Notes: generated from the sequence alone by a model not told the origin. A stretch of 64,000 nt of DNA from Nitrosopumilus sp. (GCA_965207445.1 CBDBLX010000002.1:416001-480000); one strand, 5' to 3'; counted from the stretch's first letter, positions 4,187 to 34,009 are shown. Numbers and translations are program-made.

Positions 4187-4192
4187 GTTATA

Positions 4193-5419: not shown

Positions 5420-5431
5420 TGTGTAATTCGT

Positions 5432-6052: not shown

Positions 6053-6727
6053 ATGACAAAGATAGCGATATTTGATTATGGTGCAGGTAACATATTTAGT
6101 CTTAAAAATTCACTTCAACGACAAGGCGCCAGTGTTGATGTTATACGTGACTTTACGTATGATAGTAATGATAATGATAACACTAACAATTATGATGATA
6201 CAAGTGTCACATACGAGCGCAGTGTAAAAAAATTTGATGGTCTCTTGTTGCCTGGTGTTGGAAATTTTGATCCCGCCATGAATGCTATATCTAGGGATGA
6301 CTTGATCAAATATGTAGATGATACCATACCTGTTTTTGGAATATGCTTAGGTATGGAGATGTTCTTTGCCAAGAGTCAGGAAGGGACGCAACGAGGCCTC
6401 TGCATACTTGATGGTGAGGTCGTATCACTACCTGATACGATCAAAGTACCGCACATGGGATGGAACAACCTCCACATACGAAGAGATGATAGTCAACTAC
6501 TTGATGGCATAAATGATGATTCTTGGGTATACTTTGTACACTCGTATATGGCAAAACCACTAGTACCCTCTAGTAATATAATCACTTCTGAGTCTGATTA
6601 CAATGGTATCTCGATTCCTGCATCCATTGAGTACAAAAACTATTTTGGTACACAATTTCACCCAGAAAAATCTGGACTCGTTGGACGTCAAATGATAAGT
6701 AACTTTCTAAAGGTGTGCCGCAGATGA
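6053..6727 (+). CDS. hisH: Imidazole glycerol phosphate synthase, glutaminase subunit
   Basis: LPGVG, GICLG, VPHMGWN, YFVHSY, QFHPEKS. Confidence 0.97.
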   Translation: MTKIAIFDYGAGNIFSLKNSLQRQGASVDVIRDFTYDSNDNDNTNNYDDTSVTYERSVKKFDGLLLPGVGNFDPAMNAISRDDLIKYVDDTIPVFGICLGMEMFFAKSQEGTQRGLCILDGEVVSLPDTIKVPHMGWNNLHIRRDDSQLLDGINDDSWVYFVHSYMAKPLVPSSNIITSESDYNGISIPASIEYKNYFGTQFHPEKSGLVGRQMISNFLKVCRR

Positions 6728-7521: not shown

Positions 7522-7530
7522 TGTGTTGTA

Positions 7531-8508
7531 ATGGCCCTTACAAAACGGATAATACCGTGTCTTGATGTGAAAGGTGGCAGAGTTGTCAAAGGTACTAGAT
7601 TTGTTCAGATAAAAGACGCAGGTGATCCTGTAAATTTGGCAAAACAGTACAGTGATCAGGGTGCAGATGAGTTGGTATTTTTGGATATCACTGCTTCTGC
7701 TGAACGACGAGAGACCATCAAGGAACTGGTACGTGGGGTGGCATCTGTGATTGATATACCATTTACTGTTGGCGGTGGTGTGGCATCGATGCAGGATGCT
7801 CGCAATATATTGTTGAGTGGCGCAGATAAGGTTGGTATCAATACTGGGGCCATAAACAATCCTACTGTAATTACTGATATGATGAATCTATTTGGGCGAC
7901 AGTGCGTTGTGGTGGCAATAGATGCAAGGCGCAACTATACTGTACCTGAAAACACTTCTGGCTCTTTGCATGATGTTGTGTTGTTTGAGGAGGACAATGG
8001 TCGTGTTATTGATAATTGTGATGATACTCGTGACTATACTCGTGACTATACTCGTGATAATTGTGATCCAAAATTTAATACCATATATGATAACCACAGC
8101 AACAATACTAACAACAATACTAGCAACAATACTAACAACAATGATACCCACAAATCATTCTGGTTTGAGGTCCATACTTATGGTGGCAAAAAAGGTACTG
8201 GAATTGATGCCATACAATGGGCAAAAGAGGCACAGCGACGTGGTGCGGGAGAGATACTACTCACTAGTATGGACCGTGATGGAACAAAAGACGGTTATGA
8301 CGCTATACTAACAAAGGCAGTCGTGGATGCAGTATCTATACCTGTTATTGCATCCGGTGGCTGTGGACACCCTCTTGATATGGCAAAGATATTTGAGGCA
8401 ACTGATGTGGATGCTGCACTTGCTGCATCAATATTTCATTATCAAGAACACGGTGTTGCTGGCGTCAAGAAAATATTACAAGAAAAGGGCATCCCTGTAA
8501 GATTATAA
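7531..8508 (+). CDS. hisF: Imidazole glycerol phosphate synthase, cyclase subunit (with a long low-complexity insertion)
   Basis: [40 protein letters not shown]. Confidence 0.97.
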
Positions 8509-8532
8509 ATCTGTTTTGACAAGTAATACTGA

Positions 8533-8868
8533 TTGACAGACTGCAATATTGATGATATCGATTTTGATAAAGGAGGTGGGTTAGTTCCAGTTATTGTGCA
8601 GGATGCAGAAACTAAAGATGTGTTGACACTTGCATATGCGAATCGCGAATCATTAAATCTGGCAATCAAAACTGGCAAGTCTTGGTTTTTTAGCAGATCG
8701 CGTAAAAAACTATGGATGAAGGGTGAAGAGTCAGGCAATGTTCAAAACATAAAGGAGATTATAGTTGATTGTGATTTTGATGCAATTATATATTCTGTCA
8801 CACCTACGGGACCTGCATGTCATATGGGTGAGCGTACATGTTTTCATAACATGTTGAATAAAATGTAA
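8533..8868 (+). CDS. hisI: Phosphoribosyl-AMP cyclohydrolase
   Basis: SRSR..LWMKGEESG, DCDFD, ACH.G..TCF. Confidence 0.95.
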   Translation: MTDCNIDDIDFDKGGGLVPVIVQDAETKDVLTLAYANRESLNLAIKTGKSWFFSRSRKKLWMKGEESGNVQNIKEIIVDCDFDAIIYSVTPTGPACHMGERTCFHNMLNKM

Positions 8869-9082
8869 TTGCCACTTGCATGTTAAATGTGATAAACAAG
8901 TGTACAAATTTTTTTAACAGTTTGATAATTATATGATTATAAATAACTATAATTAACATCGTGTGCATATTTTACAAAATGTTTAAAATTACACAATATG
9001 CATTCAGTGTATTTTATGTGTAAAAGAGTTTGAAAAAATTGCTTGCATGATGTATGGGCATTGAGAATGGTTCTTACTACTA

Positions 9083-15943: not shown

Positions 15944-16017
15944 GGGTCTATGGCGCAGCCAGGTAGCGCACAGGACTCTTAATCCTGCTGTCGTGGGTTC
16001 GAATCCCTCTAGACCCG
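15944..16017 (+). tRNA. tRNA-Lys (anticodon CTT)
   Basis: GGGTCTA/TAGACCC acceptor stem, CAGGA-CTCTTAA-TCCTG anticodon arm, GGTTCGAATCC T arm. Confidence 0.97.
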
Positions 16018-16573
16018 CTAATTTATCTATTCATATAGAATTAGTGATTGGATTGTGCCACATACAACAAACATGTATGTATTCGTATGGGGTGAATGGA
16101 GGTTGGTGTGTAATTCATCAAATCGCCACCTGCATCGTGCTTGCAGTCATCTGGAAATATCGCCAGAGTTTTATATGTATAAATTAAATTATTCAATAAT
16201 CTCATAGAAGGGTCACAGGCAGGCTAATGTCAATTACGCACCAATCTCGCATATCTACACTGCATAATGGCACATTGTATAGGTTAAACACAAATATGGA
16301 GATATGTGTATGTACTCACAAAATGCCAAGGCGTCTCCCACACCATGTTTTGCGCGTACACTTTGTAGGCTTGGAAGCACGGCCTGCTTATGGCTTGTTG
16401 TAGGCGTGACTTGACACCCCCCGCTGGCATCATATCTTGAGGCAGACAGTCTTCCTGTCCAGTTTACAGAACATTTGAGTGGCTTTGAATCGTGTAACGT
16501 AGGTTGCGCGGCTCAGACCACATGGCCACGACCCCAGAGGAGTATAAATTTACGAGTTATGCAACACGCTAGA
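16002..16573 (+). repeat. ~572-bp direct repeat, copy 1 (starts inside the tRNA-Lys 3' end)
   Basis: Near-identical to 20837-21407. Confidence 0.95.
16098..16248. mobile_element. ~150-bp MITE, internal deletion derivative of the IS at 27480-29175 (second copy near 20933-21083)
   Basis: Left and right portions match the two IS ends; TIR GAGGTTGGTGYGTAATT. Confidence 0.85.
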
Positions 16574-16834: not shown

Positions 16835-17464
16835 TTAGAGGGCCGATGCCACTTTCATCAGATCTGACAATGTATAGGCAGTCGAGATCAGTTCTATTTG
16901 GATCCTGCCGTCATGGAAGATCAGTTTTGATGTCATTCCGTGTTCGGGATCCCCGTCCACGCCAATGGCGTCAAAACCGTTTACCACTACACTCTGTGTG
17001 TAAGGCCGTTCCTTCAGGAAGTCTACGCGCCACTTTTCAATGTTGAAGCCATCGCGCTCTTTGTCATACAATATGATGATCCCGTGAGAGTCCATCACGT
17101 CTGCAAATGTCTCGAGTTTGTTGTAGTCTATGGATTCCGGCCCGTAGATCACCGCTGCCAGACTGGCCCTTTCTGATCCCGTTCCCCTGGTCATCAACGC
17201 CTTGACTTCCAGACCGGCTGGAAGCAGTGTGGATTCCGTTACCTTGTAACCCGCCTTTACGGACAGTGCCTCGACGTTTGGATATGCATCCCCGTAGTTT
17301 CCCAGCTTGTAGGAGTACGGCATCTTGGCGGCTGCAAGCGACTCGGAATACTTTCCAAGATACGGCAAGTCTTGCGTTTGCTGCGAGTCCTGCATCCAAA
17401 CAAGCCCGATGCCAGCAATCCCGACTGAGACTACCAGCGCCGCAATCGTGGCTTTTTTCAGCAA
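16835..17464 (-). CDS. Membrane-anchored partner protein of cassette 1 (putative immunity/inhibitor)
   Basis: TTG start overlaps the upstream stop; single N-terminal TM helix; T-rich tract downstream on the coding strand. Confidence 0.75.
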   Translation of the reverse strand: MLKKATIAALVVSVGIAGIGLVWMQDSQQTQDLPYLGKYSESLAAAKMPYSYKLGNYGDAYPNVEALSVKAGYKVTESTLLPAGLEVKALMTRGTGSERASLAAVIYGPESIDYNKLETFADVMDSHGIIILYDKERDGFNIEKWRVDFLKERPYTQSVVVNGFDAIGVDGDPEHGMTSKLIFHDGRIQIELISTAYTLSDLMKVASAL

Positions 17465-18183
17465 GTCTCTGACCCTCCTATACCGACCTTGATGTTCTTG
17501 TAGGCGGGCGTGCACTGGGTTATGAACGCGTCGTTTTCTTCGTGTTCGATATCGTTGTCCGTCCAGTAGCTCCACCTAGAACCGTCATGCCACTGTATGT
17601 ATCTCACGTCTGTTTTGGGGACCGACGTATCATCGTCCTTGGATTCTACTCCAGTGATTACGTTCCCATAGTCATAGCTCATGATTAGGCCGGCGCGTCG
17701 GGCACCGTCTGCATATGCCAGCCACTTTTCGTCCTTGTTTGTGTCTGATATCTCGTAGTATATGTTGTCAGACGGGCTGACAGAACCGGTCAATCTGTAT
17801 TCATAATAGCGCCCATCTTGCTGATATGCCAGATAGTGAAATTCATCTGAGTTGTGACATGTTCCGTTTACGTTGCCCGATACGACTCCGATTTCTATCC
17901 ACTCGTCGTTGGGAAAGACAACCCAAGTAGCTACCAGTGAGAACCCTACACCGTTTGGCGAGCATGAATCTGATACTGTTATGTCGGGAACAGTCACTCT
18001 TGCTTTGACGCCTGATATCGGAGATGAGTCCGTACTGTGGAGTTCTTGGGTTCCAATGCAGTGTGCTTCCCACCACCCACTCGTGCAGTCTTCAGTAGAA
18101 GCCGAGCTGGCCGAAGGGATCAATGCCACCCCCAACAGGATTGGAAGCACAGTCAAGATTGTTTTGGTATGTTTTGCAATCAT
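17458..18183 (-). CDS. Secreted protein, neprosin-like glutamic peptidase candidate
   Basis: Signal peptide; SGVKARV, W...WIEIG and TGVE motifs reminiscent of the two neprosin catalytic glutamates; 6 Cys; TATA box 29 nt upstream. Confidence 0.55.
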   Translation of the reverse strand: MIAKHTKTILTVLPILLGVALIPSASSASTEDCTSGWWEAHCIGTQELHSTDSSPISGVKARVTVPDITVSDSCSPNGVGFSLVATWVVFPNDEWIEIGVVSGNVNGTCHNSDEFHYLAYQQDGRYYEYRLTGSVSPSDNIYYEISDTNKDEKWLAYADGARRAGLIMSYDYGNVITGVESKDDDTSVPKTDVRYIQWHDGSRWSYWTDNDIEHEENDAFITQCTPAYKNIKVGIGGSETC

Positions 18184-18743
18184 TATGTACACTTGCACCC
18201 TACGTTATATAAGGCGGCATATCCAAATATGGAGTGCCTTTTGGCCGCGGATTCAGGCATGCAATACGGCAGCCACGGTATGTACTGGCAACTGGGCCGG
18301 GGCCGTACGGCACTGATCTGTCGATAGCTTTCATATGACATGGTAGGATCTATCCCGCTTCTTCCAACACTTTTTCCAGAGAAGAGATACTGGCATACGG
18401 AACGTGTTGAAAATGACTAGATTCTGTAGCTTTTCTGTCCGGTGGGCCTCGGAATGGTCGGACACTAGATCACCAGCAACAGCAATAGCAACAATAGGTT
18501 CATGGCAGCCATCAGAAACGGTATCACGGGAGCAGCTACTATTACCAGCCGTCCTGCCTTTGCGCCTATCTTCCACACGGGGGCACCGGCGGCCGGACTG
18601 TGGGCGATCCAAACTGGATGGCGGTAAACGTGCAAAGATAACAAAGATTTCTTTGTCACCTTTGTACTTGCCAAACCCGCGGCCAAAAGGCATTCCAGAT
18701 CAGGATAGGCCTCATTATATAATGCAAAGTGTGAGGGTGTACA

Positions 18744-19765
18744 ATGAATGCAAAACGAGCAAAGACATCTTGTTTGCTTCCTTGATCGTCGCAGTGGTTA
18801 TTCCACTTTCAACGATGGGCGCAGTGGATGCAAAACAGTCTGAAGACAAAATACCTGACGATAAACTGATCCCAAGAGATCCTGCAAAATGGGTTTTACA
18901 ATACGAGAATAAGCAGAAATTTGATGGGTATGAAAACGCTATCAAGATATACGTCGAATCTGCACAAAAAGACAACAAGTGGAATCAGGTAATGGCCAAA
19001 GAACACATACGATTGCACAACCTAGACACCAAAGTAGGCGAGATCGGCGCGGGACTACAAGCAGTGTTGGTGGACGTTGAGCATCAACAGAACCTAGGAG
19101 TATATGATCCTACCGAGGCTGAGAGAAGATACCACCAATGGGCTTTCGAACTATACCCAAACCCAACAATGCACCCAGAGATCAAGAATGTCTGGCTAGA
19201 ACAGATAGTAAAGTCACACAACAGCATAGCAAATCATGGAAACGTGCCGTCTGAACTCTCATTACGAGACCCCGAGTTTTGGATAATGACTGCAAATGAA
19301 TCAATGTGTCAATACGTTGATTGCACACAAGATATTCCAGACTCAGATCCAATCACGAATTTTGTACAAAAATACATAATTCCAAACGCACATGCATACA
19401 AAGTCAACACGTGGCACATTATGAATGGCTACATCTACACACACAGTTGTGAGGGCCAAACCGGAGGATGTATGTTCACTTTGGATACAAAAAGCGGCGT
19501 AGGCACACTGAGTTCTAGCAAGACAACTGCAAGATCTTACGATTCTGACGCAATAGTATATGCCTCAAACTGTTCACCATACTACACTACAGCGCACAAC
19601 ACACTCGATGGTGACTTGACAAGCGGTGTGCAGGAATGGTCATGGAACGACAGCAGCGATACAAGTTGCGCGGTAATATATGAGATACAAGAGATAGCGC
19701 AAAACCCACATGCGTCATTTTTTGCGACTTGGACTATTGAATCAGAGACTACTATAGAAAATTGA
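18744..19765 (+). CDS. Secreted protein of unrecognised family, paralogue of 25754-27046; probable 1-nt frameshift in the signal peptide
   Basis: Shared DDKLI, DN.WN..M, HN.DT, HGNVP.EL, P.A.A motifs; ATG 18744 is 29 nt after the TATA box but out of frame with the gene body. Confidence 0.7.
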
Positions 19766-20331
19766 ACCTCTCTCCCACTCTTTTTGTTGTTACCAAGAAA
19801 TATGAGTTATTGCCACTTGGCATGTTTGTCTTTGCGGTTTTGTTTTTAATAAGTTACAACACACTTGACACGTACTTTACAGTCACCGTTCCACTGCAAC
19901 ATGCAGTCCAGCTGGATTATGTCGGAGAGTACCACTATGATCCGACGGACGACCCGCAGTCAGACATTGGTACGGTCACTCACGTAAAGGCGATAGGTGA
20001 AGATTACATAGAGGTTCAGTTTACAGATAATGATTTTTTTGTAGGTTCGTATAGAATACCGGAATTTGTACATACCGAAACCATAAGAAAGGGAGACGTG
20101 TTCGTAGAGACATGCCTAAACTTTGATTCCGGTGTGAGTCTGGGGCTTTTGACGTATATGGGCGTCGAAGAATATGACGGAAAAGATCACTACAAGTTCT
20201 TTCGTACGAGCGCAGACACGGACAAGGAGCTACAATGCAAATATCCTCAAGTCATCATAGAAAGCCTGAAGATTGACTTGGACATTACAATACCACAAGG
20301 CAAGATCCTCACTATCGTACTTGAAGAGTAG
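19762..20331 (+). CDS. Membrane-anchored partner protein of cassette 2
   Basis: Start overlaps the upstream stop; one N-terminal TM helix; 2 Cys. Confidence 0.75.
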   Translation: MNLSPTLFVVTKKYELLPLGMFVFAVLFLISYNTLDTYFTVTVPLQHAVQLDYVGEYHYDPTDDPQSDIGTVTHVKAIGEDYIEVQFTDNDFFVGSYRIPEFVHTETIRKGDVFVETCLNFDSGVSLGLLTYMGVEEYDGKDHYKFFRTSADTDKELQCKYPQVIIESLKIDLDITIPQGKILTIVLEE

Positions 20332-20836
20332 AAAGATTTTTCCAGTGCGCTGGAATGTATCCTACAAATTCTAGCTGGAAATTAGTGACAATCTAGTGTC
20401 AACGACGTATAATTCTGGGTTTTCACTTTGGCGTTCCTAGTTCTCCATACCTAGATTCTCACTCTATCGCACCTGTTTCTCAGGTGTGCCTAGAATACCG
20501 TAGATCATTCTGCAGTGGAAACGGCAGCACGGCGGCAGCAGACCGCGGCGGCTATCCTCAAAGAATCATAGAGCTTGTTGATTCTTTCCGGATATTATAT
20601 AGTCGGTGGTGGTGTGGGGCGTACCTGCATAGCAGACTGCTTGTTTTCAGTTTGAACGCTGCCGGCAACAACTGCCCTCCGCGCACTGTGTCCTCAATCC
20701 TGCTAGTTTGTCCTGCCTAACCACAACCGGTTCTGCCCGTTCCAGATTCCATATTCTTATTAGCTGGGTATTTGCTACCATATCACATGCAGGGTTCGAA
20801 TCCCCTAAAATCAGGACACTCCTGTTCTAGCTGGCT

Positions 20837-21407
20837 AATCCCTCTAGATTCGCTAATTTATCTATTCATATAGAATTAGTGATTGGATTGTGCCACATAC
20901 AACAAACATGTATGTATTCGTATGAGGTGAATGGAGGTTGGTGCGTAATTCATCAAATCGCCACCTGCATCGTGCTTGCAGTCATCTGGAAATATCGCCA
21001 GAGTTTTATATATATAAATTAAATTATTCAATAATCTCATAGAAGGGTCACAGGCAGGCTAATGTCAATTACGCACCAATCTCGCATATCTACACTGCAT
21101 AATGGCACATTGTATAGGTTAAACACAAATATGGAGATACGTGTATGTACTCACAAAATGCCAAGGCGTCTCCCACGCCATGTTTTGCGCGTACACTTTG
21201 TAGGCTTGGAAGCACGGCTTGCTTATGGCTTGTTGTAGGCGTGACTTGACACACCCGCTGGCATCATATCTTGAGGCAGACAGTCTTCTTGTCCAGTTTA
21301 CAGAACATTTGAGTGGCTTTGAATCGTGTAACGTAGGTTGCGCGGCTCAGACCACATGGCCATGACCCCAGAGGAGTATAAATTTACGAATTATGCAACA
21401 CGCTAGA
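20837..21407 (+). repeat. ~572-bp direct repeat, copy 2
   Basis: Near-identical to 16002-16573. Confidence 0.95.
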
Positions 21408-21408
21408 A

Positions 21409-21487
21409 AATTGCGCAACGATTCATAAAGACAAGAATGATGCGTCCAGAATTGCGCAACGATTCATAAAGACAAGAATGATGCGTC
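21409..21487 (+). repeat. Tandem duplication, 38-bp identical unit with 41-bp period
   Basis: AATTGCGCAACGATTCATAAAGACAAGAATGATGCGTC x2. Confidence 0.95.
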
Positions 21488-21499
21488 GTTATTATAGTC

Positions 21500-21591
21500 A
21501 CTGCCGTCCATGCGAACGGCAGCGCGTATTTTGCCTATCGTTGTTTAGAACGATAGCGCGCATTTGGAACTGCCGTCCATGCGAACGGCAG
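21500..21591 (+). repeat. Two identical 23-bp palindromic repeats separated by 46 bp
   Basis: ACTGCCGTCCATGCGAACGGCAG at 21500 and 21569. Confidence 0.9.
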
Positions 21592-21716
21592 TGTGTATAA
21601 TACCTTATGCACCCCGGAGTCTCAATTTAAGCATTCTGATCCGCAGTCCGGTGTAGGTGCGCACCCACCACGTCCCGTCTTTTCGGCTACGCGGCGCACG
21701 TCTTGTAAGCGACATG

Positions 21717-21985
21717 CTATTCCGCCATCTTGTAGAGCCCGTTCGCGTTGCTCATCACGGGGTCGCCCGGGACTACCACCTTGAACTCCTTTAGCTTGGC
21801 GGCCAGCCTCTCCTGCATGCCGGGGATCAGCAATACCTCTCTCGAGAGCGCTACTGCATACCGGTTGCCGTACTGCCCGGACACGTCGTGTATCTCGCGG
21901 GCCAGGTTATCGGCCATTATCTTTGCGTACCTGTGGCACACGTCGTGGTTCCTGTGGAGCAGGTCCGTGTCGAGGTGGGCGTACC
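21717..21985 (-). pseudogene. C-terminal fragment of a ParM/StbA-like actin ATPase
   Basis: Ends in DPVMSNANGLYKMA, like the actin-fold connect-2 motif; GC-rich patch with an abrupt upstream boundary. Confidence 0.55.
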
Positions 21986-22217
21986 TGCCTATCTTTCTAT
22001 ATAAACACTGATTAACTGTGTTTTCAAGAGAACATCCTTGCAGTCTTTAATAAATAATAAGAAAGTGCCATCAAGACTCAATTGCATTGATGGCTCTACG
22101 TATAATGGCTTTAATATCTGGGTCTGATATCTCAGCCTCACATTGACGTAACCCCGTTGTATCGTACATATAATACAAAATATGCCCACTTTTTTAAACA
22201 TTACTAAAACCCTATGT

Positions 22218-22505
22218 ATGGATGAAGGTTTAATGAACTCTGTAAAATATGCATATAAAGAAGTTCTCAGTAATTTAGAAATAGCTAACATAGATCTAAT
22301 GAATGCAGAATCTGATAAACTTGGTGCAGAACAGACATTAGACAAGGCAAAAGATAACTATCATAACGCCGAAGTTGAACTTGAGCAGGCAAAAACAACC
22401 CTTGAATCATGTAAAACCCGTGTTAATGAATTAACAGAATGTAGTGATAATTTACGTATAGTAATTGACAATTTACGTATAGTAATTGACAATAATAATA
22501 ACTAA
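22218..22505 (+). CDS. Small coiled-coil hypothetical protein
   Basis: Heptad-like E/K/L-rich ORF; 21-bp tandem duplication near the end; start uncertain (22182 or 22218). Confidence 0.55.
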   Translation: MDEGLMNSVKYAYKEVLSNLEIANIDLMNAESDKLGAEQTLDKAKDNYHNAEVELEQAKTTLESCKTRVNELTECSDNLRIVIDNLRIVIDNNNN

Positions 22506-22677
22506 TCCATTTTTTTGAGATTACATAGGTATTCCAGACAACCTACGCACTCTTTGACATTGAGGGCACATGCACATATCAAAATATTGTGATGGATTCC
22601 ATGGGTAATGAATTATCAAGCGATTAATACCAAGCTACCATAAAGTAACGGCATGATTTACAACTCATCTTTACATT

Positions 22678-22795
22678 GCATACTGATACGATTAAAGATC
22701 CGATATTTTGATTGATATTCATCTCAAAGTTGAGCACATATTATGAATACAAAATATTAGAAAACTATCGGATCTTTAATGAAACTATTATGCAC
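22678..22795. mobile_element. ~118-bp repeat element (family C) with internal ATTAAAGATCCGATA inverted repeats
   Basis: Inverted copy at 30963-31080, partial copy at 51636-51711. Confidence 0.85.
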
Positions 22796-22944
22796 ATACT
22801 GACAACGGTCCGTATGCCGGGAGCAGGACTGCTCAACGTTCTTGTGCCCGCGTTCATTCCTGCCTGGATGCAGCAGGTCGGATAAAACAGATGCGGTAGC
22901 AGGCGGGGTCCCAGTTACTATATACGAAGCCCCATATACCATGA

Positions 22945-23145
22945 TCAGTCAACGCTGCAGTTAGGCATAGAGTGTAGTTTTGGACTTGACAATCCCCGAT
23001 GAACGGGATCAAACCCCATGATGCACATGTATAAATCCGAAAACGGATCCTGCGGGTTCCTATATGCGTACATGGGTATTATCACAACCAGTACGATCAA
23101 GAGGCCGACTACAATTACACTAATCCTGAAAAACAACTTGTCCAT
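22945..23145 (-). CDS. Small membrane-anchored partner protein of cassette 3
   Basis: One TM helix, 2 Cys, own TATA-like box just upstream, directly downstream of the protease. Confidence 0.65.
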   Translation of the reverse strand: MDKLFFRISVIVVGLLIVLVVIIPMYAYRNPQDPFSDLYMCIMGFDPVHRGLSSPKLHSMPNCSVD

Positions 23146-23197
23146 GCTCGGTCACCATATTATTTGTATATATAAGAAAAGAGTGTCTGTTGCAGAT

Positions 23198-24457
23198 TTA
23201 GTTTAAGACTGCTGTTATGTCCATTTCGTCGGCTATGTTGTCATACGCGGCGTGATAGACGCCCCACAAGTCGTGCGTGGTGAGTATCCAGTACAGGTTT
23301 CCTTTGTCTCCACTTGCAACTATTGGTCCGCCGCTGTCACCGTGTTTAAAAGCCACGTTGGATCTTACAAGATCCCGCATGATCTCTCCATCAAGAAGAT
23401 TCAGTACCGTAACGTGTAGCGCGGAGATTGTCCCAAAGGTTACGCCACTGGCCTGTCCTGACTTCATTATCGTGTCGTTTTGCTGTTGGGCCTGAGATGT
23501 CGTGTTTGTGACCCTGTGGAGTCCGCCGCCGTACACCATGTCGTTTGTTGTATTTGAACTGCTGGTGACTATCCACGCGCAATCACAATAGGTTCCGCGA
23601 TAATATTTTTCCACAGACACGGTGCCTATGTTGCTTCCTCGAGCATTGCGTACGTCTTCTCCCACTTGACTTTCTGCGCAGTGGCCCGCGGTTATCCAAC
23701 CCCATGTTGTGCCTTTTTTGGCCTTAAAGCCAAAACTGCATCTTTCTACATCCCTCTTGGGATCCGCGCTGTCTATCTCGATGTAGTTCCCGCCTATTAT
23801 CGGCGCGCATATTCGTTGCGTGCACGATGCCGTTTCCGCCGGGGTGGAGTATACCGCGTGCCAGGGAGCACCCGGTGGCATCATATCCTCGAGATCACTT
23901 ACAATGTACCTGATGTTGGTGGAATTTACCGTGGCGTTGTTCAGCCACACCTGGATTTCTTGACTGTCGATGTCTATCCTGATGCTGGTGACAAACCAAA
24001 GCGTTGTGGAGTTGAACAGTCTGAGTTCGAATGCATCCTGCTGCGCAATCAGTTGCGAAAGCCCCTCTTCTGGGATGTCTCGTTCGTGGTTTTTCTCCTC
24101 TATTGCCCTGATTTCAGACTCTATCTCACTTACGCGCGTATGATTTGTCTGATCTCCTGCGTCAGCCCCATGGGAACTGCCCAGTTTTTCTGCTTCCCTG
24201 TACAGTTTCCCAAGCCTCTCTGATATTTTTGCGCGTTCCAGCTTCTCCCGCATTCGCTCTTCAGTCTTGTCTCTGGGATGCGTCTCGTCTATGTCCCGAT
24301 CCGTGATCTTTTCTGCGTCCGGGTGCAAAAGTTCATCTAGCAGCGTTGCCGCATCCTCTTCTCCCGCGGCGTCTTCAATAATGCCTGCCGCTACAAGTGA
24401 CGCCAAGGTGACGTCCACCGGCAGCGCGACTGTGATTGTTTCTGGTTTGGCTTGCAT
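23198..24457 (-). CDS. S1 (chymotrypsin-like) serine protease with N-terminal pro-region
   Basis: TAGHC, CDC and GDSGG catalytic triad motifs; degenerate signal peptide. Confidence 0.88.
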   Translation of the reverse strand: MQAKPETITVALPVDVTLASLVAAGIIEDAAGEEDAATLLDELLHPDAEKITDRDIDETHPRDKTEERMREKLERAKISERLGKLYREAEKLGSSHGADAGDQTNHTRVSEIESEIRAIEEKNHERDIPEEGLSQLIAQQDAFELRLFNSTTLWFVTSIRIDIDSQEIQVWLNNATVNSTNIRYIVSDLEDMMPPGAPWHAVYSTPAETASCTQRICAPIIGGNYIEIDSADPKRDVERCSFGFKAKKGTTWGWITAGHCAESQVGEDVRNARGSNIGTVSVEKYYRGTYCDCAWIVTSSSNTTNDMVYGGGLHRVTNTTSQAQQQNDTIMKSGQASGVTFGTISALHVTVLNLLDGEIMRDLVRSNVAFKHGDSGGPIVASGDKGNLYWILTTHDLWGVYHAAYDNIADEMDITAVLN

Positions 24458-24794
24458 GTTATTACTATGGGTCCGTAGCTTTTGTTATATTGCGATTGAT
24501 TCTGATTTGCGGTATGTCTTTTGTGATTTCGGGTTCGAAACATCGAACCCCATCACTACTTTTTATGTGAGCTTTTTAGGGAGTTACTCCAAATGCCTAA
24601 TTTTTAATTAATTAGTCTCTGAGTGAGAGCAGCTTGGCTGAGGGTTGCTTTTTGAACAACTGTAATTTGATACGTCCTCTATATGCCAGATCGTATGAGG
24701 TCTGTTTTTTTTTGGAGATGCGTTGTTTTTGTGGCAATGAATTTGTTTCGGTGCCAGTGGGTTCTTGTACAAACACGTCGACATAGTTGGCGCG

Positions 24795-25283
24795 CTAATC
24801 CAGCAGGCATGTGTCATACCCATAAAGATCAGACAGATTGGTAGACTGAATGTCTGGTTTGGGATATCGATCTGGAGCAGAAAGACATGAAATTGTTCTG
24901 TAAACAAAGCCCTCTTTATGCTGCAGATCCAGCTCGAGGCGATTGCCATGTATGTCATGCTGGGATACAGTCAGCACGGTGGATCCGTCAATTGCCACTC
25001 TAAATTCGTCAGTAGAGTTTGGGTACATTGATTTGAATTTTTTGTAAACGGGGCTCTTTTGCAGTTCAGTGTATCCTTTAATCTCCGGGGATTCGTCAAG
25101 CATTGCGTTCTTAACTGCAAAATACAGCGTCTTCATCCTGTCACCCGCACTCGTCCCGGGTATCTGGTTTGGCAGCGATTCAAGGTATGTGACTGCAAGT
25201 GTTGTTATTATTATGGCCGCCGCACCCATACACAAAAGCACGGTCCTTGACCGGATAGGGAAGACATGCGCGGCGCTCAACAT
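24795..25283 (-). CDS. Membrane-anchored partner protein 4b (tandem paralogue of 4a)
   Basis: TY.ES.PNQ..GT, YFA.K, FKS.YP.ST.EF, GY..CL.D shared with 25284-25757. Confidence 0.8.
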   Translation of the reverse strand: MLSAAHVFPIRSRTVLLCMGAAAIIITTLAVTYLESLPNQIPGTSAGDRMKTLYFAVKNAMLDESPEIKGYTELQKSPVYKKFKSMYPNSTDEFRVAIDGSTVLTVSQHDIHGNRLELDLQHKEGFVYRTISCLSAPDRYPKPDIQSTNLSDLYGYDTCLLD

Positions 25284-25757
25284 TCAGTCCTCTAGACACT
25301 CATTATAACCAATAAAATCAAATGCCGCCTCAAATGGAACCCCTGTGGGGTGAGGCAGGGTATTGTTAGTCGTGCAGTGTACCGCATAAACAAACGGAGG
25401 ACGATTGTCATCTTTCATCATCTCCAAGGTAATGTGGTTGCCGCGGCCGTCGTACTCTGTTACGCGCAGTATCGGGGTGCCGCTTACTGTAGTTTCGAAT
25501 TCCTCAGTAGAGTCGGGGTACGCCGACTTGAACTCTGTATAGATCGGGTGGCTTGTGAATGCGTTGTACTGTTGTATGCCCTCGTGCTCTTCGAATGCGG
25601 ATTTTTTGATTGCAAAATATGCGTTTTGGAATCTGCCACTCATATCTGTGCCTGTCGTTTGGTTTGGTATTGATTCAAAGTACGTAAATCCAATTATCAC
25701 TACGGCGCCCACACATGTGAATGTTACTAACCTCTTGGTAGAAAAAAAGGGATTCAT
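25284..25757 (-). CDS. Membrane-anchored partner protein 4a
   Basis: ATGA overlap with the upstream gene; one TM helix; paralogue of 24795-25283. Confidence 0.8.
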   Translation of the reverse strand: MNPFFSTKRLVTFTCVGAVVIIGFTYFESIPNQTTGTDMSGRFQNAYFAIKKSAFEEHEGIQQYNAFTSHPIYTEFKSAYPDSTEEFETTVSGTPILRVTEYDGRGNHITLEMMKDDNRPPFVYAVHCTTNNTLPHPTGVPFEAAFDFIGYNECLED

Positions 25758-27046
25758 GGTATCCACGAATTTGTAATTCCGCGCAGATACCACACATAGT
25801 GGGGATCGTCTCTGTCACTTGCTTGTACTGTCGTATCGACCTTTGCACATCCGTTACCCGATGCGGTAAAATACACCGGCTGAGACGTGGTTTGAAATTT
25901 GGCTACTGCGCTGTTGTATGCGTGTGCACTGGAGCATGTCATTACATAGATGCGCATGTCGTTGCTCGTTCCGTGACCGGCGCCTGCGGCACCTTCGAGG
26001 TCCGGCGGAGTGGCAAGTACGTTATGTTCTCCCACGCTCCAAGGCTCGTCTTCTTGAACTTTGCATGTGCCGTACGTGCACGTGTAAGGCTCACCGTAGA
26101 CTATGGTATAGTGATAAGTCTCACTCCATGCAAATGCTTTTGGCAAAAGGATTGACAACCAATCAGATGCTACGTCCGGGGGCTGGATGGAATCTTTTTT
26201 GTACGACTCTGTATCCAAGATCTCTTGAAGGGATGTGACATTGCATCCCTGGCTGTACCCGCACGAGGAGATGCTCGCTACGAGAATCCAGTAGTCAGAA
26301 TCGTGCTCAAGCAACTCATCGGGCACGTTTCCGTGAAGCGCAAGCATGTTAAACACGCCTGCCAAATCGGGTGCAAACCCGATAAAGTCGGGTTCTGATA
26401 TGATCTCAGTGAGCCTCTGATCAATCTCTTCTACTGAGTCAGGGGCCGGGTATTTTTCAGCCAGCCAGCCGTGAAACCTCTTGACAGGCTCTGTGTGGTT
26501 GTACTGATCCAGCAGTTTTTGCTTTGCAGCAACTAGTGATGTAATTTCATGCCCAAATCCCGTCTTTTCGATTATCGTGTCAAAGTTGTGAATCTTTGTG
26601 TATGCCAAGACCATTGCTTTGTTCCAACCGTTATCGGGCATTTCTGCTATTGTGTATGTCATTAGAGCGAGCATCATCTCTCTGAATTCTCGCGGGCTTG
26701 AAAACTGGGTTTCCCATTTCTCTCCATATCGTTCGATCAGCTTGTCGTCGTAAATGTCTCCTTCATTCAGCGTAGTTTGCCTCAGATCCGACAGGTCTTG
26801 TTGGTATTTTGCCAAGACGGCTGCATTTTGAGCGGCCTGCGGCGGATCTTCTTCCTGAGTCTTTGTTTTATTGTCTTTGTCTTGTACGTCTGCAACAGTT
26901 TCTTTGTCCACGGTGGCGTTTCTCACATCTGCAATGGAAGCATCATCATCTCCAAATGACGCACCCCTCATGCCAGCTAAAAGCACGATTGCTGTCGACA
27001 GTGCCGCAATCAATATTGTTTTTGTTTGATATGTTTTTTTACGCAT
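25754..27046 (-). CDS. Secreted protein of unrecognised family, paralogue of 18744-19765
   Basis: Signal peptide (KTILIAAL), helical N-domain, LPKAFA junction, 4-Cys C-domain; TATA box upstream. Confidence 0.85.
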   Translation of the reverse strand: MRKKTYQTKTILIAALSTAIVLLAGMRGASFGDDDASIADVRNATVDKETVADVQDKDNKTKTQEEDPPQAAQNAAVLAKYQQDLSDLRQTTLNEGDIYDDKLIERYGEKWETQFSSPREFREMMLALMTYTIAEMPDNGWNKAMVLAYTKIHNFDTIIEKTGFGHEITSLVAAKQKLLDQYNHTEPVKRFHGWLAEKYPAPDSVEEIDQRLTEIISEPDFIGFAPDLAGVFNMLALHGNVPDELLEHDSDYWILVASISSCGYSQGCNVTSLQEILDTESYKKDSIQPPDVASDWLSILLPKAFAWSETYHYTIVYGEPYTCTYGTCKVQEDEPWSVGEHNVLATPPDLEGAAGAGHGTSNDMRIYVMTCSSAHAYNSAVAKFQTTSQPVYFTASGNGCAKVDTTVQASDRDDPHYVWYLRGITNSWIP

Positions 27047-27479
27047 ATTATTACTGCGGTGTAGGTACGTTTGTTATATAACAACTATGATGGGGTTACG
27101 GTATGCCTTTTGCGAATGACTCGGCGACAATGAAACGCGCGTCTTCATATAGCCTAAACCCGCAGAGGAGAATTTAAAAAATGTCTGATTATTTCCGGAT
27201 ATTCTTATGATCGTGCTTTGGCGCTCTTATAATCGAATAACTGGGCATTCCACACCGTTGCGGCGTGATGGCCTCACAAGGGCCGCGGACATGTTGCATG
27301 TCGCAGGCAACGGAACCGATCCGGCACGGGACGGGCATAAACTTGGGAACGCGGTGCGCAGTCCAGCGCGCCGCGGCTACATCTGCGCAGGCGCAGATAT
27401 TTGACATATATGGAGGCCGCGTCACAAATCCTCGTTGGAATATGATCCACAGACATACGGCAACCTGATGGCCTACAAG

Positions 27480-29175
27480 GGAGGTTGGTGCGTAATTCAT
27501 CAAATCGCCACCTACATCGTACTTGCAAAATCATCTACAAATATCGCCAGAGTTTTATATGTATAAATTAAATTAATTAATAAACTCATATATAAAAATA
27601 TCTGCGCGCATATCAAAAGTTACTTATAGGGACATCTCAATTGAATAATTGTGATACGAACAAAGGGGATGTTAAACAGCGTCGACTAGCCAATGTTATC
27701 AACGTATCGTTTGTAAAGTGTGGTGGAATGACGACATATGTGGGGTAGGTTGCCACAACATACTATGCTACACAGAGAATGACGCCCATTATAATGCATG
27801 GCTTGTGATGAATGTGGCGTCTGTTTATTGTTTGTGTAAATTTAGTGTGTGGGTTTCAAATAAGAATAGATTATGGAGGCAGACAGTACAGTGACAGAGT
27901 AGCAGCACAAGCGACACGAAGGTTATTGGCTGTATTACGAACAGACATGCAAATTTGAGCAGGGTTTTATGCGCAAGACATGGATGTCGGCGATACGAAA
28001 AAATTCACATCCGTACAAGGAAAAGAAGACAAATAGAGGAGGATGCGAGCCTGTACACTTGCGTGGCAAGATGGATTTTTTGTGCCTTTAAAAAGTTGCA
28101 AAAAATATTCCTTTTCGTGACGTGATAAATGATCTTGGACATATGCAGGATGAGCAAGTTGACGAGCCGGAGCCTGATTAGTTGGGTAACAAAACATGTG
28201 CAAACAATTGATCTCGACTGGTTTGATTCTATTTTGGCATATGCTGCCAATATGTGTCTAAATAAACTTGAAAAATCAGGGACAAATCCGGTACCGATAA
28301 AAGGTAAAGAGTTCATATTTACGCACGGATCCGAGGATTTTGAGGGCGGTAAACAAGACGTAAAAAAAGAACCTACAGGTACGATTGGGATAGACAGTAG
28401 TGTCGGGGGCAGAAAGACTGACAGATACGAAAAACAACAAAGACCAAATCATTTACTACACGACTTAACTGACACGCATCAAGACGTACCTAAAATATCA
28501 TATTATTTGATAAGCGGACACCAGATCATACTTGCATCATACACAACTCCACGCAATGCAAGTGTCACATCAATGCTTCCATATGTGGTCAACTTTCTCG
28601 TAAAAACTATACACAGATTGAAAAACGCTTATTCAACGGAGACAAGAGATACATTCGGATCAAAACTGTGAGACAATATTTGATGCAAACATGAAACCGA
28701 ACATAAAACAGCGCAATCATACAGCAGGTCATACAAACCGTGGTAAACCACCAAGCAGAAAAAAGGTAGCAGAAATCTTTGACAAAGATGCATACAAACA
28801 ACGCGCATTTATCGAGGCAATTTGGAGCAGTAGAAGAGACAAAGAATCACAGGCTACACTGTCGTATGCGCCTGGCCAAAAACAGAAAGCGGTTTGGTAA
28901 AATACTATCGATTGCATGGAATATCAACGTCCTGAACAGATTTATCTGCGCTCATAAAAAAGGGCAAAAGATTCCATCATACAAATTAGTGACTGCTATC
29001 ACACTTACACGTTTCATGTTCTATAACCTGTCTGCCAAAACAACACACATGTATATTCAAAAACAAAACACACTATAGATAGATTTCAGTCTTTTGTAGA
29101 TTAAATGTGCAATAAACCGAATAAGTTCACAGACGGGTCACAGGCAGTCCAAATGTCAATTACGCACCAACCTCC
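27480..29175 (+). mobile_element. ~1.7-kb IS (IS5/IS4-type DDE), transposase pseudogenised
   Basis: Perfect TIR GGAGGTTGGTGCGTAATT; fragments with IGIDS and YKQRAFIEA motifs across several frames. Confidence 0.88.
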
Positions 29176-29213
29176 CTGCTCGCTCGTTGACTACACACGT
29201 GCCTCAATTTGAG

Positions 29214-29459
29214 TTATACATCTCTTACAACCTCGCGTTTAGCTAACTGCTCCCACGCACCAATGTTGTCTTCGCAGTTGTACGATTTGTATTTTTGAAG
29301 AGTTTCGCGAGTATTCTCACCCTCAATTGCCAAATCGATCATTTCATCATATGTTTCGGCGCAAATTGATAATGTTTCTGTATATGCTTGATTGAATATT
29401 AACAATGCACTAAGAATAATTATGCCTGCGATTATTGAAACTATGAAAGGAGTCTTCAT
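29214..29459 (-). CDS. Small membrane-anchored partner protein of cassette 5
   Basis: One TM helix, 2 Cys, downstream of the protease. Confidence 0.7.
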   Translation of the reverse strand: MKTPFIVSIIAGIIILSALLIFNQAYTETLSICAETYDEMIDLAIEGENTRETLQKYKSYNCEDNIGAWEQLAKREVVRDV

Positions 29460-29703
29460 AATACCACAACTGATAAGCCATGTATAGTTAGGACATGCCT
29501 AGTGGGGACTACGTCGTACTCGCATGATGTCGATCCCAGGTAGTTTGATAGGCGTTGTACAAGCATACTTGATCCAATTGCGGCACACCTCATATGCAGA
29601 CGCCTCAGACGTGGAACCTGCAAACCGTGCCTGCCTCTGGACGTGAGCCCGAGGTGGGAACTAGGTGTATATTCCATGAGTAAAAATGAATTAGGGAGCA
29701 AAC

Positions 29704-30904
29704 TCATCTCAATGGTCCCAAGCCGGTTGTTGAATCATTGATATTTTCCCAAGGTGTGTAGTAGCTTGCAGATGAGGATGTTGTCTTGTTCATTCCATGG
29801 AAATTGTCTTCTGCCGAATTCGTAACGGCGCCTCCACTGTCGCCACGGTCCATTACATCAGTAGTGGTGGAAACTACATCGAACCAAATTCCATCGATGT
29901 AGACTCTACTTTCTGGATCGTCTACTATGCCATAATCAAGATTACTCGTCGCTCCGTGGATGACTATGTTAGCTCCGGCAGCTGAGCGATCAGTAAAGCC
30001 GGTTATCGTTGTCCAATCATTAGTGTTACTCCATACCGCCCGTTCGCTGTCATCCTCACTGCTTTGCTCCACCCAGGCGCAGTCGCATTCTGCTTGGTAC
30101 AAGTCAATTTCTACGTCTCCAACCTTGTTCCACCCTAGCCAGTCCTCGGTTGGCTGGAAAACATCGTCGCCGGAACCACTGGCGTCATCCACACAATGGC
30201 CGGCAGTGATGAATCCATCAACGCCGTTACGTTCCATAGGCAGTCCTATGGTACAGTACGAATGATTTTTGGACTCCATCTTAATTCCGCCAATGAGGGG
30301 GGTTACAGTTGGAATTAGGATGGGTGCAAGACGCATCAACTATAGTGTCGAACTTTACCTGTACTGATAGATCCGCATATCTGCGCTCAATTATGTCTGT
30401 GTAATATGTCTCATTTTTTTCGACAGTAATTTGACTTGCGTCAACAGTAACTACCAAGGCGTGATGAAGGCCGCTAACAGATACACCGATTAATGGCAAA
30501 TTGGATCCCACCACATCGTCTTGTGCGACACGTAGCTTTTGTTCTAATGCAGATTCAATTTTGTACCTTTCTATTCTTTCCTGTTCCATTTGATCTAGAA
30601 TGTTTTCATAATTTACAACGTCCTGTTTTAATTTTTCAATCTTTGATTGCAATTTAGCAATTTCTGCTGACGTTCTATTGCCGTCACTAATCATCGATTG
30701 GAGTTGTTTTTGGAATTCCTTCAATTCGCTCTTTGCAAATGAATATGGCTCCATCACTTCCCTCAACTTTTGAACTTTTGCTAATGCCTTGTTATCGTCT
30801 TGATCGGGTACTGCGCTAATTTGCGTTATGGAAACTGAGAGGATTATTGCAGATGACGATACTACAACCAATGCAATTTGTGTCGTTTTTGAAGTATTTT
30901 TCAT
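29704..30904 (-). pseudogene. Secreted S1 serine protease, frameshifted at a C6 run between pro-region and catalytic domain
   Basis: Signal peptide and coiled-coil pro-region in one frame; TAGHC, CDC, GDSGG in another; removing one base at 30297-30302 gives CNPLIGG. Confidence 0.85.
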
Positions 30905-30962
30905 GCTGTTGCCACTACATGTGCGCCCCCGTGTTATATAAGCACGTATATTAAAATCTGGA

Positions 30963-31080
30963 GTGCCTAATAATTTCATTAAAGATCAGATAGTTTTCTA
31001 ATATTTTGTATTCATAATATGTGCTCAACTTCGAGATGAATATCAATCAAAATATCGGATCTTTAATCATATCAGTATGC
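30963..31080. mobile_element. Family C repeat element, copy 2
   Basis: Reverse complement of 22678-22795. Confidence 0.85.
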
Positions 31081-31638: not shown

Positions 31639-33480
31639 GGAGGTTGGTGCGTAATTGACATTAGTCCTGTCTGTGACCCGTCTGTGAACTTGGTTTATTG
31701 CACATTCAATCTACAAAAGACTGAAATCTATCTATAGTGTGTTTTGTTTTTGAATATACATGTGTGTTGTTTTGGCAGACATAGATTATAGAGCATGAAA
31801 CGTGCAAGTGTGATAGCAGTAGATATCATTTGTATGATGGAATCTTTTGCCCTTTTTATGAGCGCAGATAAATCTGTTCAGGACGTTGATATTCCATGTA
31901 ATCGACAATATTTTACCAAACCGCTTTCTGTTTTTGGCCAGAGGCGCATACAACAGTGTAGCCTGTGATTCTTTGTCTCTTCTTCTGCTCCAAATTGCCT
32001 CGATAAATGCGCGTTGTTTGTATGCATCTTTGTCAAAGATTTCTGCTGCCTTTTTTCTGCTTGGTGGTTTGCCACGGTTTGTATGACCTGCTGTGTGATT
32101 GCGCTGTTTTATGTTCGGTTTCATGTTTGCATCAAATATTGTCTCGCAGTTTTGATCTGAATGTATCTCTTGTCTCCGTTGAATAAGCGTTTTTCAATCT
32201 GTGTATAGTTTTTTACGAGAAAGTTGACCACATATGGAAGCATTAACGTGACACTTGCATTGCGTGGAGTTGTGTATGATGCAAGTATGATCTGGTGTCC
32301 GTTTATTGAGTAATATGATATTTTAGGTACGTCTTGACGCGTGTCAGTTAAGTCGTGTAGTAAATGATTGGGTGTGTGAACCAAGATCTATGACTTATAT
32401 GGTCATTAAAAATCACACCAAGTCAAGCGTCACGCAGATGCAGGATTCTATATACGCGCAGTGATGTGACCAAATACTAATATGTGATTTTATTATTGTG
32501 TCCAAAGAGCTTGGTTCATACGATTGGGTCTTTCTTGTTTTTCGTACCTGTCAGTCTCTATACCACACTACTGTATCACAATCGTACCTGTAGGTTCTTT
32601 TTTTACGTCTTGTTGACCGCCCTCAAAATCCTCGGATCCGTGCACAAGTATGCACTCTTTACCTTTTATTGGTACCGGATCTGTCCCCTATTTTTCAAGT
32701 TTATTTAGACACATATTAGCAGTATATGCCAAAATAGAATCAAACCAGTCGAGATCAATTGTTTGCATATGTTTTGTTACCCAATTAATCAGGCTCCGAC
32801 TCGTCAACTTGCTCATCATGCATATCTCCAAGATCATTTATCACGTCACGAAAAGGAATATTTTTTGCAACTTTTTAAAGGCACAAAAAATCCATCTTGT
32901 CACGCGAGTGCACATACTTGCATCCTCCTCTATTTGTCTTCTTTTCCTTGGCACGGATGTGAATTTTTTCGTATCGCCGACATTCATGTCTTGCGCATAA
33001 AATCCTGCTCAGATTTGTGTGCCTGTTCGTAATACGGCCAATAACTTTCGCGTCGCTTGTGCTGTTGCTCTGTCACTGTACAGTCTGCCTCTATAATCTA
33101 TTCTTATTTGAAACCCACACACTAAATTTACACAAACAACAAGCAGACGTCACATTCATCACAAGCCATGTATAGTAATGGGCGTCATTCTCTGTGTAGC
33201 ATAGTATGTTGTGGCAACCTACTACCATATGTTGTCATTCCACCACACTTTACAAACGATACGTCGATAATATTGGCTAGTCGACGTTGTTTAGCATCCC
33301 CTTTATTCATATTCTAATTATTCAATTGAGATGCCCCTATATACAATTTTTGATAAGCGCGCAGTTACGTTTATACATATGAGCTTACTGAATATATACA
33401 CATAAAACTCTGGCGATGTTTGCAGATGACTTTGCAAGTACGATGCAGGTGGCGATTTGATGAATTACGCACCAACCTCC
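31639..33480 (-). mobile_element. Second, inverted copy of the 27480-29175 IS, pseudogenised, with nested MITE
   Basis: Same TIRs; homologous ORF fragments on the opposite strand. Confidence 0.88.
32374..32521. mobile_element. Family B MITE nested in the IS
   Basis: GTGTGAACCAAG/CTTGGTTCATAC TIRs; perfect 8-bp target duplication GATTGGGT; empty site in the other IS copy. Confidence 0.93.
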
Positions 33481-34009
33481 ATTTTCGTAAAAACTTTATA
33501 ATTTATCTGTCCTAATTCATATTGATCTTCTAATATCTCATTTTTTATATATGATCAGAAATATTAAAATATTCCCATATATTATACTTTCTATTTGATC
33601 CGATCAAATATGATCATTAACATTCAACGATATTGTAGATTATTCAAATAAAATCATATAAAACACATTGCTAACTACTGGCGCAGCCGGGTCAGGACAG
33701 TATTTCCCGTCACCGTGGGGGTGGGGATCCGGCGCGGTCGCGCGTGCAAGGATGCTTGACGTGCGGAGGTCGCGGCCCGTGCCGGGATGCGTCTGCTGCG
33801 ACTCTACCATATGCCGCGCGCAGGTCGGCCGCCGCGGCTCAAAACCGCGGCATTCTTCGCGCTGGCCTTTCGAATCGGCTGGAGTTCGGGCATCTCGCGC
33901 GTTCGGGCGCGCCGGGACGCGCGCGGATTACGGGGCAGAAAACCCCGAATCAGGCAGGGCCGCCGGCCCGATCGGACTGCTTAAATACACCATGCTCCCG
34001 TCACTATCT

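Follow-up and report, generated by a model that had tools for sequence, protein, structure and literature searches.

A 64,000-nt stretch of the genome of Nitrosopumilus sp. (GCA_965207445.1, CBDBLX010000002.1, positions 416001 to 480000; hereafter the window, with coordinates counted from its first nucleotide) carries five gene units in which a gene for an exported protein is followed by one or more small genes, typically for membrane-anchored proteins. Our preferred interpretation, tentative and quite possibly wrong, is that these units are mobile and co-regulated, and that each exported protein is accompanied by a putative membrane-tethered binder. The partner would likely stay on the surface of the producing cell, with a predicted role in binding, retaining or restraining the exported protein. 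The original prediction, derived from the DNA sequence, had described an arsenal of secreted effectors with surface-displayed inhibitors; all five units were found where it had placed them, and its reading is retained here in a weakened form, with the partner as a binder and not as a proven antidote. The interpretation is based on the conservation of the pairs across genera, the overlapping codons of first and second genes, the duplication and survival of partners, and the protease-serpin pairs known from sponge-associated relatives. Units are numbered along the window; first genes are designated U1A to U5A, and the genes downstream of them U1B, U2B and so on.

The five units share a 5' module. 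The TATA-like box predicted upstream of each first gene was confirmed and forms part, in every unit, of a longer shared box, AGGCAYNCCRNA-N17-WTATAAC, of 36 nt. When up to two mismatches were tolerated, this pattern had five matches in the window, each just upstream of a first gene; 0.13 matches were expected by chance, and none of 100 shuffled sequences gave five. The boxes are located at 18204-18239 in unit 1 (minus strand, including the TATA-like octamer; 20 nt upstream of the ATG), 18688-18723 in unit 2 (plus strand), 24484-24519 in unit 3 and 27073-27108 in unit 4 (both minus strand, variant and 26 nt before the ATG), and 30933-30968 in unit 5 (minus strand, 28 nt upstream of the ATG at 30904). 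The palindrome TCCAGATCTGG is present in several of the copies. Genome-wide, the strict pattern was present at 19 sites, 17 of which appear genuine, and variant boxes precede U3A, U4A, a remnant cassette at 219.6 kb and, at 589.8 kb, the gene of a 1052-amino-acid protein. The octamer stands 20-21 nt from the ATG at most loci, the distance being 26 nt for U3A and U4A and 28 nt for U5A; judged by the general properties of archaeal promoters, this spacing suggests that transcription would begin at or slightly before the ATG, and a factor binding the box upstream of the TATA element may exert the control. A related box (AAAGGCA followed by T or C, a single base and CC) precedes homologous genes at 9 of the 21 loci from other genomes, in several genera, and three cassettes of another Nitrosopumilus genome (locus L012) have a nearly identical 80-nt upstream region.

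The box is followed by one type of signal peptide. As had been predicted, the first genes begin with similar K/T-rich segments followed by a hydrophobic stretch, and conserved Cys residues are present in their products. A hidden Markov model of 12 of these N-termini recovered, from all reading frames of the genome, the same 12 sequences and no others (E ≤ 2e-7), the next match having an E value of 0.9. Since the model found again only the promoter-bearing set, promoter and export signal travel together on otherwise unrelated genes; global DNA identity gave no discrimination between promoters and gene bodies (0.65 vs 0.58). The first protein would be exported via Sec, with cleavage of the signal peptide and oxidation of the Cys pairs outside the cell.

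Of the five first genes, two (U3A and U5A) were identified as S1 serine proteases, in line with the proposal that the system is protease-based in part. U3A (23198-24457, minus strand) is intact and encodes a 419-amino-acid protease of the alpha-lytic/streptogrisin type, with matches to alpha-lytic protease (3ure_A; E 7e-12 over about 150 residues) and streptogrisin B (E 2e-11) and a score of 23.1 bits for the Pfam family Trypsin, against a cut-off of 20.6. Its motifs TAGHC, DCAW and GDSGG, which hold the catalytic His, Asp and Ser, align with those of alpha-lytic protease. The protease domain is preceded by an acidic N-terminal extension of about 200 residues, in which no pro-domain family of Pfam was matched; an hhalign comparison of this N-terminus with the U4A family revealed no relation. 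U3A thus resembles the alpha-lytic/streptogrisin group (3ure, 1sgd, 5mrt) in its His/Asp/Ser motifs and in having a long N-terminal extension in the position of the pro-region, and differs from it in being archaeal, in lying behind the shared box and in being followed by a small membrane-anchored gene. In a remnant cassette elsewhere in the genome (G000:C2:219617-220122), a variant box precedes what is left of a U3A-like gene, namely its first 57 codons (61% identical); the protease body has been lost and a 66-amino-acid ORF (open reading frame) similar to U3B (84% identical) is intact.

U5A is split into two frames. Its 5' part (30281-30904, minus strand) encodes a signal peptide and a coiled-coil or pro-like region and is ended by a frameshift at a run of seven C (30296-30302), and its 3' part (29704-30339, minus strand) encodes, in a different frame, an S1 protease domain with the motifs ITAGHC, CDCAW and GDSGG of the catalytic His, Asp and Ser. 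The run had the same length in the contigs of four sequencing runs from one sample. U5A is a paralogue of U3A (E 5e-10), and its score for Trypsin_2, 17.3 bits, lies below the cut-off of 27.6. By descent it belongs to the S1 family, and it is probably not produced as a single protein.

The first genes of units 2 and 4 belong to a single family (28% identity, E 1e-25) that has no entry in Pfam or NCBIfam. U4A (25754-27046, minus strand) encodes 430 amino acids. A structural model based on an alignment of 78 sequences (predicted local distance difference test, pLDDT, 84; predicted template modelling score 0.82) consists of a helical domain (residues 70-300) and a beta-sandwich (residues 308-430), linked by a nearly invariant LPxAxA motif. 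Nothing in the libraries searched matched U4A above noise, and leucocin A, at E 0.18, was the sole hit among PDB sequence profiles. The family comprises 10 close relatives and 183 representative clusters at E ≤ 1e-3, and in the host genome it matches eight places at seven loci, U2A and U4A included. Among 23 sequences, mean identity was 32% in the N-terminal vs 18% in the C-terminal domain, and the latter was the lower in 250 of 253 pairs, which indicates that the C-terminal domain evolves faster than the N-terminal one. U2A is represented by a body ORF of the same helical-plus-beta-sandwich family (18722-19765, plus strand). The ATG at 18744, taken as its start in the original prediction, had to be abandoned, being out of frame with the body and followed by a stop after 13 codons. 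Comparison with paralogues points to the loss of 1 nt, for which no variant was found in the contigs of the four runs, and U2A is probably not expressed with a signal peptide.

The U4A-type N-terminal domain also heads giant proteins of 1500-1700 amino acids rich in Ig-like, PKD, cadherin and RTX repeats. At four such loci the next gene encodes an exported protein of 517-569 amino acids, and a small partner is missing from all four. At loci L046-L049 (genomes G105 and G140), where the giants measure 1593-1686 amino acids, two downstream exported proteins contain pentapeptide-like repeats. A halocin C8-type precursor was considered for U2A and U4A and rejected: neither had a Pfam match to halocin C8 or Hac8_like_N at E ≤ 0.1, and the signal peptide is K/T-rich, not of the twin-arginine type.

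U1A (17458-18183, minus strand) encodes an exported, Cys-bridged and beta-rich protein of 241 amino acids from another orphan family, with no match in PDB sequence profiles, Pfam or NCBIfam. Conserved Cys residues are present, and two Glu residues, E97 and E180, do not vary among 17 diverse relatives; the AlphaFold2 model of the protein had a pLDDT of 42. The U1A-type domain also heads proteins of 928-1159 amino acids with Ig, cadherin, HYR and FN3 domains. A feature similarity of 0.91 to clusters carrying the glutamic peptidase G1 (PF01828) or neprosin (PF03080) families provided a weak lead to these peptidases, which was not borne out by profiles: no Pfam family was assigned to U1A, PF01828 was matched by 1 of 13 family members, at E 0.01, and by none of 17 in a wider set, and the host genome had no PF01828 match at E ≤ 10. 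The giants headed by U1A- and U4A-type domains suggest that these domains may act in binding or anchoring no less than as toxins.

All five units possess downstream small genes whose products have one N-terminal hydrophobic helix, as predicted, with the helix-free U5B as an exception. U1B (16835-17464, minus strand) has one N-terminal membrane helix and a likely TTG start overlapping the U1A stop (TTGCTGA). U2B (19762-20331, plus strand), a member of the commonest partner family (B2), has an N-terminal helix and two conserved Cys residues, starts within the stop of U2A (TTGA) and had no usable match in the protein atlas. U3B (22945-23145, minus strand) encodes 66 amino acids, with one helix and an ectodomain of about 40 residues containing two Cys; it lies 50 nt downstream of U3A and has a TATA-like box of its own about 25 nt before the ATG (within 23146-23197), so that it may be transcribed apart from U3A. 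Unit 4 contains two partners, U4B (25284-25757, minus strand; 157 amino acids, B4 family), whose start overlaps the U4A stop (ATGA), and U4C (24795-25283, minus strand), which starts directly after the U4B stop. In unit 5, U5B (29456-29707, minus strand) is an uncertain 83-amino-acid ORF with ATGA overlaps on both sides and with neither a membrane helix, a signal peptide nor relatives, which may encode a genuine small protein or simply be a leftover of decay; U5C (29214-29459, minus strand) encodes 81 amino acids with one N-terminal helix and two Cys.

The overlap of stop and start codons had been claimed for three genes; it is real and extends to four units, twice in unit 5. Translational coupling of this kind would deliver both proteins in fixed proportion, the partner ectodomain being the candidate binding part for the first protein and the partner protecting, or perhaps loading, the surface of its own cell. 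That partners of different cassettes are unrelated is mostly correct, and hhalign detected no relation between the B2 and B4 families; the two partners of unit 4, in turn, are paralogous (33% identity, E 5e-30). As a candidate family for U1B-type partners, DUF4367 (PF14285) was rejected, one partner reaching 18.3 bits (E 0.003), below the cut-off of 22.1, and U1B and three other members having no match to it. The partner in question (L055 2145-2855, genome G265) lies beside a U1A relative and is a weak fold lead for the U1B type.

The association of first genes with anchored partners is conserved beyond the host genome. Of 21 U4A-family loci in other genomes, 17 carry a gene for an N-terminally anchored protein no more than 170 nt downstream (two loci with short sequence were dropped, and the window locus and one duplicate locus were set aside). 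The small relatives of U1A are followed by an anchored partner in 4 of 4 cases, and likewise at three loci of the host genome, counting two U1-type pairs beyond that of unit 1, and at one in L012. U1B-type partners accompany U1A-type genes. The original prediction had named homologues lacking adjacent partners as the observation that would speak against it; this check was made and did not refute it. An array resembling that of the window was observed in L012, which belongs to a Nitrosopumilus metagenome-assembled genome (OZ241981, positions 1123-9082): it comprises a U1A-like gene and two U4A-family genes, one of them broken, all three accompanied by their partners, as well as an orphan B2-type partner and a further gene for an exported product.

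Several observations weigh against the idea of a dedicated binder. Its central step, the binding, is one that we infer. The partners match no known family in Pfam or NCBIfam, and none of inhibitor or immunity type. Three of the 21 U4A-family loci lack a partner and one is ambiguous, and two clades of the family are without it; partners are also absent after the giants (4 of 4 of the U4A type and 2 of 3 of the U1A type inspected), and among the 19 scanned loci of relatives (L071-L089) a small anchored gene follows 2 of 4 motif-filtered protease ORFs. U3B-type partners occur both after S1 proteases (G216, G009) and after U4A-family genes (G009, G054), with E values of 1e-20 to 4e-28, and at loci L003 and L004 first genes that are close on the tree and have similar C-terminal domains are nevertheless followed by unrelated partners. 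At one locus the downstream slot is occupied by a membrane-anchored DsbA-like thioredoxin. Finally, two of the five first genes of the window are broken. A total of 31 partners fell into 12 BLAST clusters, of which B2 is the commonest (12 members) and is scattered over the tree of the U4A family, other partner families substituting for it in single clades. These data indicate that partners are matched only loosely to their first genes.

Loci with the shared box number about 22 in the host genome. The first gene is open from its canonical ATG in 11 and broken or truncated in 11, and the partner frame is open beside 9 of the 11 broken genes. Both this survival of partners and the presence of two diverged partner paralogues after U4A would be expected if the partner protects. 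The same decay can be read in another way, in which first and second proteins do not interact and the units are two-gene operons of variable exported or surface proteins that turn over, and perhaps switch on and off, behind a portable module of promoter and signal peptide. The breaks often fall in or near the part coding for the signal peptide (U2A and the loci at 235286 and 2379534) or in the run of seven C (U5A), unrelated genes fill the downstream slot in close relatives, and the joint movement of promoter and signal peptide on unrelated genes points in the same direction. A second contig of the same sample (runs X1-X4) shares positions 18639-18672 upstream of unit 2 and then enters a run of 16-17 C, so a further locus with the unit 2 upstream sequence carries a long homopolymer, which would suit this reading. 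Against it stand specific pairings that persist in different genera, with codons that overlap (all 8 of the 8 small genes seen of the U1A/U1B type, and 12 loci of the U4A family with B2), and the two frameshifts that were checked, which are fixed without length variants in contigs of the four runs, where rare variants may be hidden. Altogether, we consider an absence of interaction decidedly improbable.

The view that the units are mobile is supported by their genomic setting. The host genome is archaeal, with 2.6 Mb and 39.6% GC, and the genes surrounding the variable region have housekeeping functions (his genes, haem-copper oxidase, type I restriction). The five units occupy a variable stretch that runs from a tRNA-Lys (CTT) gene at its left edge (15944-16018, plus strand) to about 33.5 kb. 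Units 1 and 2 are bracketed by a direct repeat of 570 bp whose copies are 98% identical: the first (16002-16573, plus strand) contains elements resembling miniature inverted-repeat transposable elements (MITEs) and begins within the 3' end of the tRNA-Lys gene, and the second (20837-21407, plus strand) opens with a copy of the final tRNA-Lys bases. The repeat pair resembles the scar of an integration or a tandem duplication at the tRNA-Lys gene; no integrase gene was seen near the repeats. Unit 5 lies between two inverted copies of an insertion sequence (IS)-like element of 1.7 kb with terminal inverted repeats of 18 nt (27477-29175, plus strand, to the left; 31639-33483, minus strand, to the right), an arrangement like that of a composite transposon. 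At least 21 long copies of this element are present genome-wide, and its ORFs had no Pfam transposase match. The IS and MITE debris reported between the units is thus real. The claim that the units are GC-richer than the backbone holds for units 1-2 (0.44-0.51 at 17-20 kb) and units 3-4 (0.47-0.49 at 23-27 kb), compared with flanks of 0.35-0.43, and fails for unit 5, which at 0.42-0.43 is not clearly above them. The left flank and the tRNA-Lys gene are kept in synteny in 40 of 40 genomes of the genus. In five relatives no right-flank gene of the window was found within about 7.5 kb of the left flank and tRNA-Lys, and so an empty insertion site was not located; a scan of viral contigs detected no relative. 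Among the sequencing runs listed for the stretch none was of RNA, and small shares occurred in runs labelled sponge metagenome.

The families are patchily distributed among 301 genomes of the Nitrosopumilaceae. The U4A-family profile matched 32 of them at E ≤ 1e-5, some through the signal peptide only, U1A was found in 11 and the protease in 19; the three families often occur in the same genomes and are sometimes adjacent. Such a multi-copy and island-borne distribution, together with similar arrays in L012, G092 and G228 and the position of the units amid IS and MITE elements in DNA of deviant GC, would also fit a classical toxin/immunity system of the bacteriocin or polymorphic-toxin type, with exported killers, specific antidotes and dissemination of the whole arsenal by mobile elements. 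Of what was foreseen for such a system, the cassette architecture, the export signals and the anchored partners are all present. The layout of several operons under one regulatory box is that of the bacteriocin regulons of lactic acid bacteria. The fast-evolving C-terminal domain of the U4A family, the many unrelated partner families and the partners left open beside broken first genes are in agreement with this possibility, as are the duplicated or orphaned partners (U4B/U4C, p759B, L012 2858-3583 and the 219.6-kb remnant with its intact U3B-like ORF). The closest solved relatives of the proteases are alpha-lytic-type enzymes, among them Lysobacter entries named lytic endopeptidase.

Other evidence argues against killers with cognate antidotes. 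No toxin fold was detected, and the first genes that are not proteases matched no toxin or enzyme family and no known fold; this part of the original claim was not supported. Both orphan domains head giant adhesin-like proteins of 900-1700 amino acids. With respect to the features by which polymorphic toxins are recognized, a small gene lies directly downstream in all five units of the window; a conserved N-terminal part with a variable C-terminal domain was found in the U4A family, the comparison being inapplicable to U1A and the proteases; and partner type does not follow effector type, as shown by the spread of U3B-type partners and by the L003/L004 pair. A single partner family common to proteases and the orphan family, and unrelated partners beside closely related first genes, would require a swapping that strains the toxin/immunity explanation, which we judge unlikely, though worth keeping in view.

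A further alternative assigns to the partner the role of a membrane anchor or of a private folding helper, comparable to the membrane-anchored foldases that serve lipases, that loads the exported neighbor, the outcome being attachment to hosts or particles and not antagonism. Apart from the DsbA-like protein in one downstream slot, the partners gave no match to known families of anchors or foldases. A conserved N-terminal domain should moreover keep one anchor, and at least seven unrelated partner families are found behind U4A-family genes. The giants do without such partners, and surface display would be unusual for secreted proteases. On these grounds we regard an anchor or helper as rather improbable. 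Returning to the tethered binder, the set would serve dealings with a host, prey or neighbors through protein digestion, lysis or attachment. A more far-reaching reading, doubtful on the present data, is a portable export-cassette system of the Nitrosopumilaceae in which a promoter-operator and a signal peptide drive interchangeable secreted effectors, such as lytic proteases and orphan domains for binding or catalysis, with membrane-tethered antidotes, against neighbors or a sponge host.

The units were compared with systems described previously. In sponge-associated ammonia oxidizers, secreted S8 proteases are encoded beside secreted serpins, for which the authors propose a control of the organisms' own or of host proteases (PMC6790972). 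Those S8A-serpin pairs resemble the present units in occurring in related organisms and in that an exported protease has an exported partner as its neighbor, in many cases beside a tRNA gene. The differences are that the proteases of the window are of the S1 family, that the partners are small N-terminally anchored orphans with no serpin match, and that three of the five units are not recognizable proteases. With polymorphic toxins, as described (PMC3482391), the units share a conserved N-terminal part, a faster C-terminal domain, a small downstream gene, unrelated downstream families, orphan copies and mobile DNA. The units differ from them in that no toxin domain was recognized and no sharp recombination break was evident, that the partner family does not track the C-terminal domain, that the signal is of a plain Sec type and that the N-terminal domain also heads adhesin-like giants without toxin ends.

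The VARTIG module of Thermococcales, as reported (PMC8416519), is likewise archaeal, has an upstream exported variable protein and changing downstream genes, and has been considered in the light of conflict or self/non-self recognition; it differs in its proteins (the small units of the window are not Ig-based) and its phylum, and the shared promoter-plus-signal module and two-gene organization set the present units apart from it. The halocin C8 precursor ProC8 (10.64898/2026.07.27.741052) resembles U4A in having, within one exported precursor, a large N-terminal part and a smaller Cys-containing C-terminal part, which in U4A are joined by the LPxAxA linker; the C-terminal part of U4A is a beta-sandwich of 120 amino acids, compared with a peptide of 76 in ProC8. 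No description of the cassettes, the shared box or the families was found in the literature, subscription journals and supplements lying outside the search.

Ammonia-oxidizing archaea are usually regarded as thrifty autotrophs that have little machinery for social life or for dealing with hosts. If the partners are antidotes or inhibitors, the units would amount to a new system of conflict or host interaction in an archaeal group of global importance, and cassettes with true antidotes would give ammonia-oxidizing archaea their first arsenal of the toxin/immunity type, marked by a regulon signature of its own. If the partners are anchors, the units would show how these organisms mount variable surface proteins. 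Three or more of the protein families are absent from Pfam and NCBIfam, the shared box offers a direct handle on the regulator and the full regulon, and the conserved pairs are clean targets for assays of binding, inhibition and killing.

Beyond the variable region, an ORF of 814 amino acids (33668-36112) had no convincing Pfam match. It lies in a stretch of 61% GC set in a background of 38-40% GC, and contains eight tandem repeats of 12 nt at positions 35774-35902.

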